A stretch of DNA of 5,523 nt from a virus, in UHGV virus genome UHGV-1006037; one strand, written 5' to 3'. This document shows positions 1 to 5,523 of this stretch, piece after piece; the first letter of the stretch is position 1; each line of letters starts with the position of its first letter. The notes beneath the pieces are model-generated. The model made no database searches and was not told the DNA's origin. It saw only the letters and a list, made by a program, of their open reading frames with translations. The translations under genes were made by a program, and so were the position numbers.

Positions 1-1
1 G

Positions 2-199
2 AAAAACGGCGTATTCGTGCTGATCCGCAACAAGAAAAACAAATGGATAATCACAATGTGCGGCTCGATAGTAAACGCAAAGGTATTCGACACCAAAGAA
101 GAAGCGGAAGAACACATAGCTAAAAAAGAATGGGAAGACATCCTGACCGTAGCATTCATATTCATCATGCACATAAACGAAGAAATGAAAAACAATTAA
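2..199 (+). CDS. Hypothetical protein, 3' portion. The frame is open to the left window edge, so the true start lies upstream, or at the other end of a circular genome. ORF track shows only the M17-initiated part
   Basis: Frame 2 is open from nt 2 to TAA at 197-199. Codon usage (gta, ttc, gac, atc, aca, gaa) matches the confirmed genes. It ends 12 nt before the VP1 start. No recognisable motif. Confidence 0.45.
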   Translation, partial: KNGVFVLIRNKKNKWIITMCGSIVNAKVFDTKEEAEEHIAKKEWEDILTVAFIFIMHINEEMKNN

Positions 200-211
200 A
201 CAAAATAAGCC

Positions 212-2254
212 ATGAAAAAAACATTAGGAGGAGACAGAATCCGAAGCGAAAGCAAAATGGAAGTATATCTGCCTAATTTCGGTAGATCATCACATAACAT
301 AGGAAAAATAATCCGGACATCGCAAGCATGCGGTACAATCGTTCCCTATTGGTGCCAGATAGGCATGGACGGAACGACATTCTATATCGACATCACGACA
401 AAAGTAAAAACACTGCCGACAACCGGACCCGTATTCGGCAGCTTCAAACATCAAATCGACGTATTCGTAATTCCGATCAGACTCTATATAGCAGCACTGC
501 ATAATAACGCTTTAGGAGTAGGGTTGAACATGAGTAAAGTACTATTGCCACAATTTGAAGTATACACAGCCAATACATCGATCTATGAAGACGACGTCAA
601 CAGAGGGCAGGTCAATCCGAGCTCGCTACTCTCATACTTGGGAATAAAAGGATTCGGACACTCCAGAACCAATCAATACCTCCGAAGATTTCCTGCGATA
701 TTCAATCTGGCGTACTGGGATATATTCAAAAACTACTACGCCAATAAACAAGAAGAAAACGCATATGTAATCACCGGAATAAACCATATCTGGAAGAGCA
801 TCAGCGTAGGAGATGGAGTTAAGGTACTCAAGACATGGGTGGAAAACAAAAGCCAAGCATACAAGATGGCTCCGACAGCTGAGAAACCGTTATATATCAT
901 AATAGAGTTCGAGGAGAATATCTCACCCGAAGAGGTCAACGAGATCCAGTTAATGACGAATATTCCCGACTCAACGCAGAAATTAAACGAGCTGACGAAA
1001 CTCGGTGACTCCTTTGTATTCGAACGAACAGATCCGGACGCGCTGGGACTCAGGGAGCCGAGCAACCCGAGAAAGGCAGCCAAGGTCTTCGCGTACAAAG
1101 TCAAAAAGAATATCACAATCGCATACAACATGGATGCGGCCGGAGAGAATCTGATAACAATGCCGGACAACCAGAAGATCAAACTAACGCAATTTCCATT
1201 AAAAAACATCGACGACGAACGGAGCGCAATCTTAGCAGCACCCAGCACCTCGGCATATATAGTAAGCAATTCAAAAATGCCATACGGGGCAGCAACAGGG
1301 ACTTTAGATCTGCCGGATCACAACCGCACAAAAACATATCACAGCTCAAATGCATGGTACTCACAAGCAGGATTAGCAGTAAAAACGTATCTCAGCGACA
1401 GATTTAACAACTGGCTGAACACCGAGTGGATCGACGGGACGACCGGAGGGATCAACGCGATCACAGCGGTAGATGTAAGCGAAGGAAAACTTACGATGGA
1501 TGCTCTGATCCTCCAAAAGAAGATTTTCAACATGCTGAATCGCGTAGCCATTACAGACGGCACCTATCAGGCGTGGAGAGAAGCAACGTACGGGGTCAGG
1601 AGCACAACGCTGCCTGAATCTCCTATCTTCTGCGGCGGAATGCAGAGCGAAATCGCATTCGACGAAATCGTATCGAACTCAGCAACAGATGAAGAGCCAT
1701 TAGGAACACTTGCCGGACGAGGAGTCGCAACCATGTACAAATCCGGAAGGGGCTTAAAAATCAAATGCACAGAACCCTGTATGATTATGGCCCTGGGATC
1801 GATCACACCTCGAGTCGATTACAGTCAAGGCAATAAATGGTGGACAAGACTACAAAATATGGATGACTTCCATAAGCCAACATTGGACGCAATCGGATTT
1901 CAAGAACTGATAGCAGAAGAAGCAGCGGCATGGAGTACGGAAACCACTGAAAACTACAAACAAACGTATCAATCATTAGGAAAGCAACCGTCATGGATCG
2001 AATATACGACAGACGTAAACGAAACGTACGGCGAATTTGCCGCGGGAATGCCTTTAGCATTCATGTGTTTGAACAGGGTATACGAACAAGGGATAAATAG
2101 AACAATTACCAACGCGTCGACGTACATCGATCCGACAATATATAACAATATATTCGCGGAGTCGAGACTGAGCTCGCAAAACTTCTGGGTTCAAGTAGCG
2201 TTCGACGTAACAGCACGTCGAGTAATGTCAGCAAAACAAATTCCAAATTTATAA
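212..2254 (+). CDS. VP1: Microviridae major capsid protein (VP1 / F-like), 680 aa
   Basis: The longest ORF. Its N-terminal region "LPNFGRSSHNIGKIIRTSQACGTIVPYWCQIGMDGTTFYIDITTKVKTLPTTGPVFGSFKHQIDVFVIPIRLY" follows the conserved order of gokusho/alpavirus VP1 (basic N-terminus, S.H, G.L.P, G.TF, ...P..GP, FFVPxRL-like 'FVIPIRLY'). A length of roughly 550-780 aa is typical for VP1. ATG at 212 and TAA at 2252-2254. Confidence 0.9.
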   Translation: MKKTLGGDRIRSESKMEVYLPNFGRSSHNIGKIIRTSQACGTIVPYWCQIGMDGTTFYIDITTKVKTLPTTGPVFGSFKHQIDVFVIPIRLYIAALHNNALGVGLNMSKVLLPQFEVYTANTSIYEDDVNRGQVNPSSLLSYLGIKGFGHSRTNQYLRRFPAIFNLAYWDIFKNYYANKQEENAYVITGINHIWKSISVGDGVKVLKTWVENKSQAYKMAPTAEKPLYIIIEFEENISPEEVNEIQLMTNIPDSTQKLNELTKLGDSFVFERTDPDALGLREPSNPRKAAKVFAYKVKKNITIAYNMDAAGENLITMPDNQKIKLTQFPLKNIDDERSAILAAPSTSAYIVSNSKMPYGAATGTLDLPDHNRTKTYHSSNAWYSQAGLAVKTYLSDRFNNWLNTEWIDGTTGGINAITAVDVSEGKLTMDALILQKKIFNMLNRVAITDGTYQAWREATYGVRSTTLPESPIFCGGMQSEIAFDEIVSNSATDEEPLGTLAGRGVATMYKSGRGLKIKCTEPCMIMALGSITPRVDYSQGNKWWTRLQNMDDFHKPTLDAIGFQELIAEEAAAWSTETTENYKQTYQSLGKQPSWIEYTTDVNETYGEFAAGMPLAFMCLNRVYEQGINRTITNASTYIDPTIYNNIFAESRLSSQNFWVQVAFDVTARRVMSAKQIPNL

Positions 2255-2258
2255 TACC

Positions 2259-2582
2259 ATGAAAACAGCAAAAAGTAGAAAAGGATGTATCAATAATCCA
2301 GACCTTACCTACGAGGCAGAACCGAGGGAAGTAAAACTAAGAAAGATAATCAGCGGAGAGGCCAGTAACATGGAGGATGGAGTATTTCCAACAATCTACA
2401 CGGAAAAAAAAGATGGAGTACAACCCGAATACGACATAAGAACAGATCGATTCGAAGTAGCAATAGACGCAATAGACAAAATCAACCAAAGCACAGCAAA
2501 CCAAATCGCAAAAAACAAGGGCGAAACCGAGGCTGTGAAAAATTTCGGGACAGAAGGAAAAACCGATCCCGAAGAAAGCTAA
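2259..2582 (+). CDS. Hypothetical acidic protein, 107 aa. By position it could be a VP3-like internal scaffolding protein; this is speculative
   Basis: The ATG lies 4 nt after the VP1 stop, giving a tightly coupled gene. Codon usage is gene-like, the stop is TAA at 2580-2582, and a strong terminator follows. No motif recognised. Confidence 0.55.
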   Translation: MKTAKSRKGCINNPDLTYEAEPREVKLRKIISGEASNMEDGVFPTIYTEKKDGVQPEYDIRTDRFEVAIDAIDKINQSTANQIAKNKGETEAVKNFGTEGKTDPEES

Positions 2583-2737: not shown

Positions 2738-3946
2738 ATGAACTTCAAAAAACTAATAGACCTACTCGAAAAAGGAGAAGACCTTACAAGTCCTCTCTCG
2801 GGAATAATCGGCGACGTTTCAAGTATCTTCAACGTGCTGGGCATAGGCAGGAGGAAACAGATAAGACAGCAGAAAGAAATGGCAGAGAATGCAGCCAAAA
2901 TAAATTACAAATACGGAGAAATGGCTGCGGAGAACGCATTCGAAAGACAGCAAGTGTTATACAACAGAACCTATCAAGACCAAAGTTATGCCAACCAAGT
3001 CGCGCAAATGGATGCAGCGGGATTGTCTCCCGGTCTGATGTATGGCAAAGGAGGCGCCGGGGGCGGAGGAGCCGGATCGACAACAGGTGCTCCAATGGGT
3101 GCAACAGGAGCTACAGGAGCAGGGTCAGCAGCCGATCCGAATATGCAACTACAGGCATTGATGTCATTGCGACAGGTACGGATGAGCGAACGAAAGAACG
3201 AGGCGGAAATCAACCTACTCAATACTCAAGCAGATGCACTCAAGGCAGAAGCGGGTAAAAACAAAGAGGAGACCCAATCGATAATCGATAAAAGATTGTG
3301 GCAAGTAAAACAAGAGATGTACGAAGGGTGGAAGGACTTCATCGATACGGCTAACCAACTATGGGACCAGATGGTAAAATGGCAGCCTACAAAGAAAACG
3401 AAAATCGACGACAAGGAAATCGAAATACCGAAGTACTTCGAGATAGAAGATGACAAATTCGGCAAAATCGTATTCGGAGAGGAATCATTCCAGGGCGATA
3501 TGATGAAAGCCGAAAAACAAATCCTCGAAGGAACAGCGGCAATCAAAACTCTGGAGAGCATATATGCAGACGAAAAACTATCGACAGAAATCAGAAAAAT
3601 ACACGCGGACGCATGCAGCGCAATGGCTCAGGCAGCTTACTTCTACGCAGCAGGCGAAACCCAAAAAGCAGAAGCAAAAGTACTCGAAGCAAAAAAGAGA
3701 ACCGAAGAAGCGACCGCAGACCTGCGAGAACTCCAATATTGGACCGAAATAGCGAACACAATCCTCAAGCTGGCGCAAGTAGTAGGAAACATGGTAATCG
3801 GAGGAAAAACAGGAAAAGCGATCAGGGAATACACAGAAAAAAAGATGAACAATACTCCCCCCATGAACTCATCAACAGTAACGCAGCACTATGATCCAGA
3901 AATGAATTTTAAGGGAGCGGACAAGACCGTAACGACAAAATGGTAG
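2738..3946 (+). CDS. VP2: Microviridae minor capsid / DNA pilot protein (VP2 / H-like), 402 aa
   Basis: "ENAFERQQVLYNRTYQDQSYANQVAQMDAAGLSPGLMYG" resembles the conserved ...YQR.V.DMKAAGLNPML.Y... block of gokushovirus VP2. This is followed by a Gly/Ala-rich linker (GKGGAGGGGAGSTTGAPMGATGATGAGSA, nt ~3047-3130). The remaining sequence is K/E/A/Q-rich and reads as helical / coiled-coil. Its size and its position after VP1 fit VP2. Confidence 0.8.
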   Translation: MNFKKLIDLLEKGEDLTSPLSGIIGDVSSIFNVLGIGRRKQIRQQKEMAENAAKINYKYGEMAAENAFERQQVLYNRTYQDQSYANQVAQMDAAGLSPGLMYGKGGAGGGGAGSTTGAPMGATGATGAGSAADPNMQLQALMSLRQVRMSERKNEAEINLLNTQADALKAEAGKNKEETQSIIDKRLWQVKQEMYEGWKDFIDTANQLWDQMVKWQPTKKTKIDDKEIEIPKYFEIEDDKFGKIVFGEESFQGDMMKAEKQILEGTAAIKTLESIYADEKLSTEIRKIHADACSAMAQAAYFYAAGETQKAEAKVLEAKKRTEEATADLRELQYWTEIANTILKLAQVVGNMVIGGKTGKAIREYTEKKMNNTPPMNSSTVTQHYDPEMNFKGADKTVTTKW

Positions 3947-3985: not shown

Positions 3986-4897
3986 GTGTGTCTATATCCA
4001 AGTACCATAGAGAATCCAAAATACGCCAAATCGAACGAAAACGCTAAAAGAATAAGAGATCGTCGTCTGAGATGGATCCAAATTCCATGCGGACACTGCG
4101 AAGAATGTAGGCGCGCAAAAGCAAATGAATGGAGAGTAAGATTGATGGAAGAAATAAAATCTAATCCAAAAAATACTATATTTGCAACGCTGACATTCTC
4201 GGAAGAAAGCCTAAAAAAATTAGAATATGACAAAAACGAACCGAACAAAACACCTCAAAAAGCAATCAGCCTATTCAGAAAACGATGGTGGAAAAAGCAT
4301 AAAAAACCACTCAAACACTGGCTAATCACAGAAATGGGACACGACAATACCAAAAGAATACATCTACACGGCATTATATGGACAGAACTAACAGAAGAAC
4401 AATTCGAAAAAGAATGGGGGTACGGCTGGGTATTCTTCGGGTATGAAGTAAACGAAAGAACAATAAACTATATCATAAAATACATAACGAAAAAAGACGA
4501 GGACAACCCTGAATTCAACGGAAAAATATTCACTTCAAAAAAAATCGGAATAAGCTACATAAACAAAAACACACTCAACAGGCATAGATATCAGGATAGA
4601 TTCACAGAAGAAACATACAGAACAAATTCAGGAATAAAAATAGCACTACCAGCATACTACAGACAAAAAATATGGACAGATCAAGAACGCGAAGCCCTTC
4701 GAATCATAAAAGAGGAAAAACAAATAAAGTACTACAACAAAACTCCTATCAAAGTAGAGACAATAAAACAATACGAAGAGTATGTACACGCAGTAAAATA
4801 TTGGCAATCGATCAAAAAATATGACGGAAAGAGAAAAGAAGGAAATATGCAAGGCATATGGAGACCTGACCATAAAGAAGGAGAAATTAATTCGTGA
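3986..4897 (+). CDS. VP4: Rolling-circle replication initiation protein (VP4 / gene A-like), 303 aa, GTG start
   Basis: GTG at 3986 is the first start after the in-frame TAA at 3959-3961 and gives the N-terminus MCLYPS typical of microvirus Rep. There is a Cys cluster PCGHCEEC (aa 34-41). Motif 1 is FATLTF (nt 4181-4198). Motif 2 (HUH) is HLHGIIW (nt 4361-4381). Motif 3 is NYIIKYITKK (nt 4469-4495), with two Tyr as in phiX174 A protein YVAKYVNKK. Stop is TGA at 4895-4897. Confidence 0.9.
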   Translation: MCLYPSTIENPKYAKSNENAKRIRDRRLRWIQIPCGHCEECRRAKANEWRVRLMEEIKSNPKNTIFATLTFSEESLKKLEYDKNEPNKTPQKAISLFRKRWWKKHKKPLKHWLITEMGHDNTKRIHLHGIIWTELTEEQFEKEWGYGWVFFGYEVNERTINYIIKYITKKDEDNPEFNGKIFTSKKIGISYINKNTLNRHRYQDRFTEETYRTNSGIKIALPAYYRQKIWTDQEREALRIIKEEKQIKYYNKTPIKVETIKQYEEYVHAVKYWQSIKKYDGKRKEGNMQGIWRPDHKEGEINS

Positions 4898-5018
4898 AAT
4901 ATGGGAAACAGAATTTGCAATCAAAAAAATAGAGAATATATTAACCAGAAACAGGATAATAAATTCACCGGAAGAAGAGGATACATCGGAGATAGATCCA
5001 CTAATCTCACAAAACTAA
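4821..5018 (+). CDS. Hypothetical small protein (65 aa) overlapping the 3' end of Rep in another frame; possibly the 5' part of a gene that continues in the 4901-5257 frame
   Basis: It has an ATG start and gene-like codons, and translates as a helical-looking peptide (EKKEICKAYGDLTIKKEKLIREIWETEFAIKKIENIL...). It overlaps Rep by 77 nt. Overlapping genes are classic in Microviridae. Confidence 0.35.
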   Translation: MTEREKKEICKAYGDLTIKKEKLIREIWETEFAIKKIENILTRNRIINSPEEEDTSEIDPLISQN

Positions 5019-5257
5019 TCGGTGTAGAAAGAGTATCTCGACAAGACTTCAAATACGAAGGAACATACTACGTAACAGAAGATGGAGAAATATTCGACAA
5101 AGAATACGTAGAAACTCAAAAACCACAAAGAACCGGCATCAGCTTCTACGAAGTAACCAACTGGATGTACAACGAAAAAAAACAAATGTACGAACCTGTT
5201 ATCAGAAGAATAGTAATGATCAAAAACACCAACACTCAATTATCAATGGACCTATGA
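4901..5257 (+). CDS. Hypothetical protein (118 aa as an ATG-initiated ORF). The C-terminal two thirds are convincingly coding
   Basis: Same frame as Rep, with the ATG 3 nt after the Rep TGA. From about 5019 onward the codon usage and sequence (GTYYVTEDGEIFDKEYVETQKPQRTGISFYEVTNWMY...) look like real protein. The first ~40 codons overlap the 4821 ORF and look like low-complexity out-of-frame sequence. There is no alternative start between 5019 and 5170. Confidence 0.4.
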   Translation: MGNRICNQKNREYINQKQDNKFTGRRGYIGDRSTNLTKLIGVERVSRQDFKYEGTYYVTEDGEIFDKEYVETQKPQRTGISFYEVTNWMYNEKKQMYEPVIRRIVMIKNTNTQLSMDL

Positions 5258-5424
5258 ATGAAAAAGTAAAAAAAATCGTAAAATGGATCGCGGTAATAGC
5301 AGCCGCAATCGGCGCCGCGGCCGCCGTAATCATGGAACAGGGATGCACTCACAAGCGCTACTTCAAAGCAAACGGCATTAAAATCGACACAGTCGAAGTA
5401 TCAACATCAACAAAAATCAAGTAA
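5254..5424 (+). CDS. Small single-pass membrane protein, 56 aa (not in the supplied ORF track); candidate lysis or membrane-targeting protein
   Basis: The ATG at 5254-5256 overlaps the TGA at 5255-5257 of the upstream ORF (ATGA coupling). It translates as MNEKVKKIVKWIAVIAAAIGAAAAVIMEQGCTHKRYFKANGIKIDTVEVSTSTKIK. The N-terminus is basic, there is a ~17-residue Ala/Ile hydrophobic helix and a basic C-terminal tail. TAA at 5422-5424. Confidence 0.5.
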   Translation: MNEKVKKIVKWIAVIAAAIGAAAAVIMEQGCTHKRYFKANGIKIDTVEVSTSTKIK

Positions 5425-5425
5425 C

Positions 5426-5523
5426 ATGGACAAAAAATTCAGAAATCAGCTACTTGCTGAAAGCGGAAAAAAAGAAGGGGAAGTCAAAAGCGCAAACCTC
5501 GAAATCGAAGAAAGAGTACAATC
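5426..5523 (+). CDS. Hypothetical protein, 5' portion (MDKKFRNQLLAESGKKEGEVKSANLEIEERVQ...), running off the right window edge
   Basis: The ATG lies 1 nt after the previous stop and the frame is open to the end of the window. Its phase is compatible with the open frame at 2-199 if the sequence is circular. Confidence 0.4.
   Translation, partial: MDKKFRNQLLAESGKKEGEVKSANLEIEERVQ

Follow-up and report, generated by a model that had tools for sequence, protein, structure and literature searches.

The lysis protein E of the microvirus phiX174 is overprinted in gene D, contains an essential proline in its helix, lacks a signal-peptidase site and inhibits MraY. The microviruses rank among the commonest phages in the human gut. 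Outside the phiX174 group, the manner in which they lyse the host is an open question and no gene for lysis is known (PMC3394797; PMC7062461), and in other microvirus families lysis-associated accessory genes have been located between VP1 and VP4 (PMC9239249). Among plasmid-encoded lysis factors, the bacteriocin-release protein (BRP) is a precursor of about 47 residues with a 19-residue signal peptide; it is lipid-modified, lethal when overexpressed, permeabilizes the envelope and activates the outer-membrane phospholipase (PMC2896534). Works cited in PMC5727409 describe the BRP signal peptide as stable and functional on its own. This study concerns the virus genome UHGV-1006037, a stretch of 5,523 nucleotides (the window), in which an open reading frame (ORF) with its ATG at 5254-5256 and its TAA at 5422-5424 encodes a 56-residue product, MNEKVKKIVKWIAVIAAAIGAAAAVIMEQGCTHKRYFKANGIKIDTVEVSTSTKIK, with 30 residues preceding a cysteine, Cys31. 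The analysis indicated that the ORF belongs to an apparently undescribed class of small lipoprotein genes which, in Bacteroidales-associated microviruses, closely precede the capsid gene.

The window is a complete circular microvirus genome from the human gut, with all genes on the plus strand, and many independent sequencing runs also yielded it as circles of 5,553 nt, an assembly overlap accounting for the excess over 5,523 nt. It was compared with 36 close relatives from IMG/VR, in which VP1 was 80-89% identical, and with distant relatives, in which VP1 was 37-60% identical; 57 near-complete distant genomes made up the census described below. The 56-residue protein was encoded in all 36 of the close relatives, which cover the region. 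In an alignment of the window with 34 relatives, both junctions of the ORF, the ATGA shared with the preceding ORF and the stop followed after one nucleotide by the next ATG at 5426, were kept in 35 of 35 sequences, and the ATGA overlap suggests that translation may be coupled to that of ORF 4901-5257. Moreover, the frame was the only one that was free of stops in all 35 sequences. The ratio of nonsynonymous to synonymous differences per site (pN/pS, Nei-Gojobori) was 0.116 in this frame and 1.6-3.3 in four of the five others; the codon-antisense frame gave 0.13, an expected artefact, and was interrupted by stops in most sequences. About 190 clusters (90% identity) matched the protein, nearly all of them exactly 56 residues long, and the 56-codon length was kept in 103 of 120 clusters. 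An identical protein was encoded by at least 24 contigs, which came from separate sequencing runs.

An earlier, sequence-only reading of this DNA had described the ORF at these coordinates, its ATGA overlap and a small protein of basic N-terminus with a single hydrophobic helix, and all of this was borne out; the protein was, in addition, the sole membrane-directed product of the genome. The conservation at the same position that it had proposed as a check was found in the close relatives. Its supposition that the ORF was too short for typical ORF callers did not hold, since gene callers predicted it on every contig examined and a homologue, DAG62868.1, was deposited in the nr database as a 'hypothetical protein'. 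That reading had also raised the possibility that the hydrophobic stretch was the frame shadow of a GC-rich element. More generally, there might be no gene at all, the open frame being a product of chance or a shadow cast by something else, either a GC-rich element of the DNA or RNA or a gene on the opposite strand. The segment 5284-5346 is indeed 63% GC in a genome of 42% GC, and short minus-strand ORFs overlap the frame. However, synonymous sites varied freely and the amino acids were invariant: all four GCN codons were used for the alanines of codons 13-24. The high local GC content thus stems from alanine and glycine codons with free third bases, which excludes the shadow of a GC-rich element. 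The low pN/pS was confined to this frame, apart from the stop-broken codon-antisense artefact, and the length was conserved, both of which argue against a spurious frame. The absence of a gene is barely credible, and the ORF is almost certainly real.

The corresponding locus of the distant relatives was examined for lipoproteins. A PROSITE-style lipobox scan alone was unspecific, since it matched 23 loci on the T-rich minus strand, and coding-strand position and synteny were therefore relied on. ORFs with a lipobox were found in 22 of the 57 genomes of the census. All of them lay on the coding strand and ended 12-693 nt before VP1, a position to which such ORFs were confined on that strand. 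Their usual place was just before the homologue of the 98-residue ORF that precedes VP1. The syntenic families were designated the L077, L076/L081/L068, L039/L062, L072, L043, L057/L050, L059, L065 and L083 types, and their lipoboxes included ...LLTSC·NAKQFVSQ..., ...MIGGC·EST..., ...VQ[S/G/A]C·TMS..., ...GVSC·TNM..., ...LLAC·TNS..., ...FTSC·SAS..., ...TTGC·SVN... and ...ITIGC·KTT... (the dot follows the cysteine); another, ...LGLTSC·NVTR..., belonged to a prophage integrated in a 104-kb Paludibacteraceae contig. The families have in common with the 56-residue protein the locus, the strand, a small size (49-87 residues), the succession of n-region, h-region and cysteine, and cationic mature parts that are rich in Ser, Thr and Asn, with a D-[ST] core found in every syntenic family examined. 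In contrast to it, their lipoboxes are canonical, their hydrophobic h-regions ordinary and their linkers for the most part longer. Where microvirus genomes in GenBank had related ORFs, these were labeled 'hypothetical protein' or were unannotated.

The nearest outgroup family was the L077 type, a 67-residue protein with the sequence ...IISIFTSC·SASYMLHKKGVHTDSVEVWIKTKTNNAVY, in which 44 of the 45 sequences had the lipobox [FL][TAM][SG]C and the remaining one had FTNC. When the mature parts of the two families were compared as Cys-anchored, ungapped profiles, the similarity had a z-score of 4.8 and was equaled in only 5 of 200,000 permutations. Searches with hmmsearch gave P values of 1e-6 to 5e-6 in both directions, and hhalign gave P = 8.6e-6 for the mature part and 9.8e-5 for the full length, pairing Trp11 with Trp17, M-E-Q-G-C with x-F-T-S-C, Gly41 with a glycine and Asp45 with an aspartate. 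The D-[ST]-[VI]-E-[VLM] block of the tail was also present in the L077 type. The 56-residue protein is thus demonstrably homologous to the syntenic L077-type family, the relationship being seen only by profiles and the Cys-anchored test, as pairwise BLASTP produced no alignment of the two. With the L057-type family, hhalign gave P = 0.03-0.04, which is suggestive only, and a hidden Markov model of the tail had no significant match to families other than L077. Homology across the whole superfamily is unproven, save for the apparent bridge between the L077 and L039/L076 types provided by P0305.

P0305 (71 residues) joins an L077-type signal peptide (...LLFTSC·SAS) to an L039/L076-type mature part (...YTKGDTTTTIIKYEQVGNIRK), and P0306 (71 residues) appeared from its match profile to be a chimera of the same type; together they suggest that the microvirus lipoprotein families have exchanged modules or descend from a common ancestor. 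A 39-residue L077-type homologue called from an internal methionine (P0307, DAG76425.1) carried the nr label 'MAG TPA: Lysis protein [Microviridae sp.]', its siblings being labeled 'hypothetical protein'. The signal peptides of the L050, L057 and L059 types (for example, L057 4707-4904) weakly resembled NCBIfam NF033879, the 'smalltalk protein', a 29-position model by which NCBI names proteins in, for example, B. thetaiotaomicron. The matches of these three analogues had E values of 0.002-0.016 and 15-18 bits, compared with a cut-off of 24.7, and ended exactly at the cysteine; the 56-residue protein itself did not match this Bacteroidota model. A mixed profile of the syntenic families retrieved 2,403 clusters at the lenient threshold of E <= 10, most of which lay on contigs about 6 kb long, and the top 120 that were inspected were all of the L057/L050 type.

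The 56-residue protein has the general plan of a lipoprotein precursor. Lys4, Lys6, Lys7 and Lys10 are followed by 17 uncharged residues, Trp11 to Met27, a length within the 7-22 residues typical of a lipoprotein h-region, and Gly30-Cys31 supplies the small residue at -1 and the cysteine at +1. Among the 104 sequences over which conservation in the family was scored, Gly30 and Cys31 were invariant (104/104), and Glu28 and Gln29 were each found in 103, position 28 being once Asp. In codons 28-31 pN was 0 and pS was 0.64, so that synonymous variation was present. The classical lipobox is [LVI][ASTVI][GAS]C, and PROSITE permits [LIVMFWSTAG] at -3. The glutamine at -2 is permitted by PROSITE and occurs likewise in the VQSC lipobox of the L057 type, and in the L077-type alignment the homologues have a cysteine at the equivalent position. 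The sequence-only reading had observed that EQGC lacks Leu, Val or Ile at -3 and had concluded that the protein was not a lipoprotein. The observation was correct, as the glutamate does break the classical lipobox, but the dismissal was unsupported: Gly30-Cys31 is invariant, the L077-type homologue has a canonical lipobox and the syntenic ORFs all have lipoboxes. The sequence features indicate that the protein is very probably exported with its N-terminus inside and its C-terminus outside, and the comparison with the homologues makes lipidation of Cys31 fairly probable.

The phylum to which the Bacteroidales belong makes very many lipoproteins. There the '+2' sorting rule of E. coli does not hold (PMC5837995), and acidic residues after the cysteine constitute a surface-export signal (PMC13056109). 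No such acidic residues were present in the tail of the 56-residue protein. The mature peptides of this and the syntenic families were cationic (+1 to +3), and all but one were without acidic residues after the cysteine; consequently, they should remain on the periplasmic side. The Bacteroidetes Q-rule (PMC5837995) raised the possibility of a signal peptidase I site, which was rejected because glutamate would lie at -1 or -3 and no candidate had small residues at both -1 and -3 before a glutamine.

The two halves of the protein were found to be under very different constraint. The pN/pS was 0.039 for codons 1-31 and 0.238 for codons 32-56, so that the signal or transmembrane (TM) half was about six times more constrained, and the mean pairwise identity in the family was 0.91 and 0.70, respectively. 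The h-region had a mean Kyte-Doolittle hydropathy of 2.4, a pN/pS of 0.062 with a pS of 0.34, and 53% Ala plus Gly in the pattern A16-x3-G20-x3-A24. AlphaFold predicted a helix at residues 3-29 with a predicted local distance difference test score (pLDDT) of about 86, and two low-confidence strands in the tail (pLDDT about 51-55). The stronger constraint on the signal or TM segment means that the helix probably has a sequence-specific function of its own; a pure targeting signal should not be so constrained. Specific packing, either of the helix with itself or with a membrane protein of the host, is probable.

The glutamate at -3 could have abolished signal peptidase II cleavage of what was once a lipoprotein, leaving an uncleaved, non-lipidated single-pass membrane protein in which Cys31 would serve another purpose, either an E-like 'protein antibiotic' or a pinholin-like or signal-anchor-release (SAR)-like helix, whose Ala/Gly zipper oligomerizes or binds a host inner-membrane enzyme. 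Consistent with such a protein, Glu28 not only breaks the lipobox but is itself under strict selection, and the amino acid sequence of the helix is hyper-conserved, showing a small-xxx-small pattern along with its high Ala and Gly content. The TM domain of phiX174 E is likewise its functional part and its tail is permissive, the same asymmetry as that observed here. However, the invariance of Gly30-Cys31, on which the lipoprotein pathway depends above all, has no easy alternative explanation, a periplasmic disulfide being an unlikely alternative role in an anaerobe, and the homologues and analogues all keep canonical lipoboxes. Moreover, the helix has no proline, the gene is not overprinted as E is, and there is no encoded endolysin for a holin to release. 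On balance, a membrane protein that escapes processing altogether is unlikely.

Tentatively, the 56-residue protein may be an envelope-disrupting lysis effector that resembles the colicin-lysis lipoproteins, a proposal suggested by its context. The lysis or membrane role put forward in the sequence-only reading is plausible for the one membrane-directed product of a genome in which no endolysin was found. The basic n-region and the 17-residue Ala/Gly-rich helix would insert the product by way of Sec, bringing Cys31 to the periplasmic face, where it would most likely be modified with diacylglycerol. Signal peptidase II would then cleave the precursor, probably slowly because of the unusual glutamate at -3, and give a 26-residue cationic lipopeptide and a signal peptide that is itself apparently functional. 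The protein would act on the host envelope, and its likeliest job would be host lysis or permeabilization of the envelope at the end of infection, in the manner of the bacteriocin-release lipoproteins, whose mature lipopeptide and stable signal peptide both damage membranes. An active signal peptide like that of BRP would explain the constrained helix and perhaps also a deliberately slow lipobox.

A scan of eight ORFs of the genome with PHROGs and Pfam revealed no peptidase or lysozyme domain and thus no endolysin. In some relatives, the slot between Rep and VP1 was occupied by a putative M15 peptidase and a small TM ORF. The M15-like ORFs were located at 4573-4989 in L074, 2759-3115 in L075, 468-899 in L089 and 670-1101 in L109; the assignment is putative, based on an S-x-H-x-x-G-x-A-x-D motif and mutual phmmer matches. 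In L074, L075 and L089 the small TM ORF lay beside the M15-like ORF, upstream of VP1. A lipoprotein ORF was found in none of the four M15-peptidase genomes, three of which were within the 57-genome census. Three other genomes had, in the lipoprotein's place and 281-474 nt upstream of VP1, a different ORF of 50-60 residues with two hydrophobic segments (METQPIGNTLVENLALILAILVGVWEVIARVIPTVNNWSGTALVLKVLNFLSELLNRTKK; L040 2888-3070, L041 697-879 and L042 2213-2365), which may be a holin-like alternative.

Several observations weigh against a lipoprotein with a lytic function: 1) the glutamate at -3 violates every classical definition of the lipobox and a PROSITE-style scan does not match the protein, so that lipidation is deduced from the homologues, 2) the exclusivity of the lipoprotein and the M15 peptidase rests on four genomes and is estimated to be statistically non-significant, 3) 18 of the 57 distant relatives, including L067 (VP1 56% identical), have no lipoprotein, peptidase or TM ORF, so that the clade can apparently complete its cycle without one, which weakens the argument that this must be the lysis gene, 4) the asymmetry is the opposite in the L057/L050-type families, whose mature part is more conserved than the signal half, which limits the argument for a functional signal peptide to the family of the 56-residue protein, 5) the protein had no similarity to PHROG lysis families or to entries in Pfam, PADLOC and the PDB, and 6) the 'Lysis protein' label of DAG76425.1 could not be reproduced, as hmmscan of that sequence against Pfam gave no match.

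The accessory distribution of the gene is what would be expected of a non-essential fitness gene, and it accords with the main alternative function. A superinfection-exclusion or receptor-masking lipoprotein, like T5 Llp or Cor, would inactivate a phage receptor or the machinery that energizes it, shielding infected or lysogenic cells and sparing progeny from debris and vesicles. Exclusion is the classical role of small phage lipoproteins other than spanins. Lacking an acidic signal for surface export, the mature peptides would face the periplasm, and the integrated Paludibacteraceae prophage (L072) carries a syntenic ORF of another family with a canonical lipobox. In a speculative variant, the conserved D-T-[IV]-E-V strand would mimic a TonB box and block TonB-dependent, SusC-like receptors. 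A TonB-box-like [DE][ST]-phi-x-phi motif was found in the family of the 56-residue protein and L077 and in the L076/L081 families (shuffle P about 0.02 each); however, the likeness was chosen post hoc, the strict pattern was absent in 6 of 10 family representatives, and it occurred in only two independent families. Phase variation of susC/susD, among other loci, correlates with resistance to the only cultured Bacteroides microvirus (PMC13064476), but the link is correlative and the other loci vary too. Moreover, searches of Pfam, PHROG and PADLOC matched the protein to neither Llp nor Cor nor another exclusion family, and the greater constraint on the signal or TM half than on the supposed effector tail would be unexpected if only the mature lipopeptide mattered. 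Exclusion is on balance a somewhat doubtful function for the protein.

A further version of the lysis proposal was also considered. The poor lipobox, with its glutamate at -3, and the Ala/Gly-zipper helix might make the 56-residue protein a decoy pro-lipoprotein that jams or exploits the Lgt, LspA and Lol pathway or forms a membrane lesion. It is conceivable, although quite improbable, that the missing lysis gene of the Bacteroidales-associated microviruses works in this way, by a mechanism that would be new for any phage. If so, it would define a new class of single-gene 'protein antibiotic' directed against lipoprotein biogenesis rather than peptidoglycan precursors.

The protein had no match in PHROGs, Pfam (to E = 10), NCBIfam, PADLOC or the PDB sequences. 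Pfam, which includes a colicin-lysis model, likewise gave no relevant match at E <= 10 for six of the analogues. An exhaustive HMMER search of 1.84 billion representatives with the family profile returned the same tight family, fragments, fusions and one 769-residue protein, so that, apart from this probably fortuitous repeat protein, HMMER detected no distant homologues. The 769-residue protein (P0252) is a Cys-rich repeat protein with Pro/Thr-rich linkers and five copies of 'PLKVNGVCVDTIQVSATHKLKC'. These repeats resembled residues 35-56 (E = 2e-10 for the whole library) and were the sole match outside the family, probably a chance likeness of short beta-hairpin-like repeats. Full-text literature searches found no paper describing microvirus lipoproteins.

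The features of the window are listed in Table 1. The interval between VP4 and VP1 is a block of small ORFs, comprising 4821-5018, 4901-5257, the gene for the 56-residue protein and the 98-residue ORF.

Table 1. Coordinates of the genes and of the elements of the 56-residue protein in the 5,523-nt window
Feature	Position	Strand	Remarks
VP1 major capsid protein	212..2254	+	PHROG 514, Pfam Phage_F; synteny anchor
107-residue ORF	2259-2582	+	
VP2 pilot protein	2738-3946	+	
VP4 replication initiator	3986-4897	+	
ORF118, 118 residues	4901..5257	+	Upstream neighbor; stop overlaps start of the 56-residue protein
Coding sequence of the 56-residue pre-protein, stop included	5254..5424	+	pN/pS, sole open frame, homologous clusters, gene calls
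ATGA start/stop overlap with ORF 4901-5257 (TGA 5255-5257)	5254..5257	+	Read directly; conserved 35/35
Basic n-region, codons 1-10 (MNEKVKKIVK)	5254..5283	+	K4, K6, K7, K10 nearly invariant; pN/pS 0.037
Hydrophobic h-region or TM helix, codons 11-27 (WIAVIAAAIGAAAAVIM)	5284..5334	+	
Atypical lipobox-like motif E28-Q29-G30-C31	5335..5346	+	C31 is the predicted lipidation/cleavage site
Tail past C31, codons 32-56 (THKRYFKANGIKIDTVEVSTSTKIK)	5347..5421	+	Cationic; beta-strand-like alternating pattern; pN/pS 0.238
Best-conserved tail motif K43-I-D45-T-V-E-V-S-T51	5380..5406	+	D45 invariant
98-residue ORF, 5' part	5426..5523	+	Begins 1 nt past the stop of the 56-residue protein; crosses circular junction
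98-residue ORF, 3' part	1..199	+	Conserved small gene immediately upstream of VP1

Since the 98-residue ORF spans the junction, the window is a circular permutation of the genome, and a listed ORF at 17-199 is only the C-terminal part of this gene; the homologue in relatives has 101 residues and is uninterrupted. Such homologues lay directly upstream of VP1 in almost all relatives and had a common 'F.T.EEAE..I..K.WE.IL' motif and an amphipathic C-terminus. The product of ORF118 had a 'Y-V-x-E/D-D-G-x-I-x-x-K-E' motif in common with ORFs of 66-74 residues in distant relatives (L067 5033-5239, L076 2075-2275, L081 823-1047, L068 1511-1711 and L039 824-1036), which lay before or after the lipoprotein gene and represent another conserved small gene.

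A GC-rich hairpin at 2612-2642 directly follows ORF 2259-2582, where the block of capsid genes ends. It has an 11-bp stem (AAAGAGGGGGG ... CCCCCCUCUUU) and a 9-nt loop and is followed by T residues; its minimum free energy was -19.9 kcal/mol (z = -3.97), and none of 200 shuffled sequences folded as well. The hairpin may serve as a terminator or have a part in replication or packaging; the terminator scan presumably missed it because its loop exceeds 8 nt. The scan for sigma-70 promoters and terminators gave nothing above the shuffled controls, Bacteroidota promoters lying beyond its coverage.

A megablast search with the whole window found no close relative among deposited phages, and a tblastn search with the 56-residue protein found no match among them; the nearest deposited VP1, from animal faeces, was 56% identical. 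All four relatives that were found inside long bacterial contigs lay in Bacteroidales genomes or metagenome-assembled genomes (two Dysgonomonas, one Paludibacteraceae and one Phocaeicola), and the wider clade of the virus thus integrates into Bacteroidales genomes. A complete relative with VP1 83% identical (L069, NZ_JACWEU010000076.1), in which the ORF for the 56-residue protein is at 1765-1935, was a free 5,673-nt contig in the assembly of an Acinetobacter lwoffii isolate. It is most likely a contaminant or non-integrated passenger and not evidence of the host.

What was a vague 'small TM ORF' is now a defined object, a conserved 56-residue protein that is under purifying selection and probably lipidated. 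Small envelope lipoproteins of phages and plasmids are a known kind; new here are their occurrence in single-stranded DNA microviruses, the atypical lipobox and the hyper-conserved signal helix. The protein may be the missing lysis or host-envelope factor of the Bacteroidales-associated microviruses, and the question of their lysis has become directly testable. The 26-residue lipopeptide and 30-residue signal helix are small enough for full mutational and synthetic dissection, and the cultured Bacteroides microvirus isolate provides an experimental entry point (PMC13064476).

Comparison with the lysis components of other phages showed several partial likenesses. The spanins, such as the o-spanin Rz1 and the u-spanin T1 gp11, are also outer-membrane lipoproteins of phage origin. 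The o-spanins are rich in proline and have several cysteines, which the 56-residue protein does not. Among the coding-strand ORFs of the window there was neither an i-spanin-like partner, that is, a type II membrane protein with a periplasmic coiled coil, nor a second TM ORF, and the protein has no C-terminal TM domain. A holin-endolysin system is not apparent either, as no muralytic domain was detected in the eight ORFs and the M15-bearing relatives are without the lipoprotein. Like phiX174 E, it is a small microvirus protein whose N-terminal TM helix is under stronger constraint than the basic tail at its C-terminus, and each would be the only candidate for lysis where no endolysin is encoded. 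Unlike E, it occupies its own frame, with an overlap of only 4 nt, has no proline in residues 1-31, and has an invariant Gly-Cys and lipoprotein homologues; a PHROG search found no sequence similarity between the two.

The small lipoproteins T5 Llp and phi80/N15 Cor resemble the 56-residue protein in being encoded by accessory phage genes and in acting, as it would, from the periplasmic side, where their objects are outer-membrane receptors. Their mature parts are folded and about 60 residues long, compared with 26 here. They differ further in that the signal segment of the 56-residue protein is more conserved than its mature part, and there was no sequence match. Entericidins A and B are very small bacterial lipoproteins with bacteriolytic activity and mature parts of about 21-27 residues. 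They are chromosomal toxin/antidote pairs that form amphipathic helices, whereas the tail of the 56-residue protein is predicted, with low confidence, to form strands, and no Pfam match to the protein supported a likeness to them.

The colicin lysis proteins (BRP, Kil and Cel), which would be its closest functional analogues, differ from the 56-residue protein in that they have a canonical lipobox and not a glutamate at -3, in their origin from enterobacterial colicin plasmids and not from a single-stranded DNA phage of a Bacteroidales-associated clade, and in sequence, where there is no similarity. As in BRP, however, a tiny lipoprotein precursor would leave a short mature lipopeptide. A precursor of 56 residues with a mature part of 26 suits the sizes of this group (about 45-55 and 25-35 residues), but the lipobox is atypical. 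Moreover, the stable signal peptide of BRP parallels the hyper-conserved signal segment of the microvirus family.

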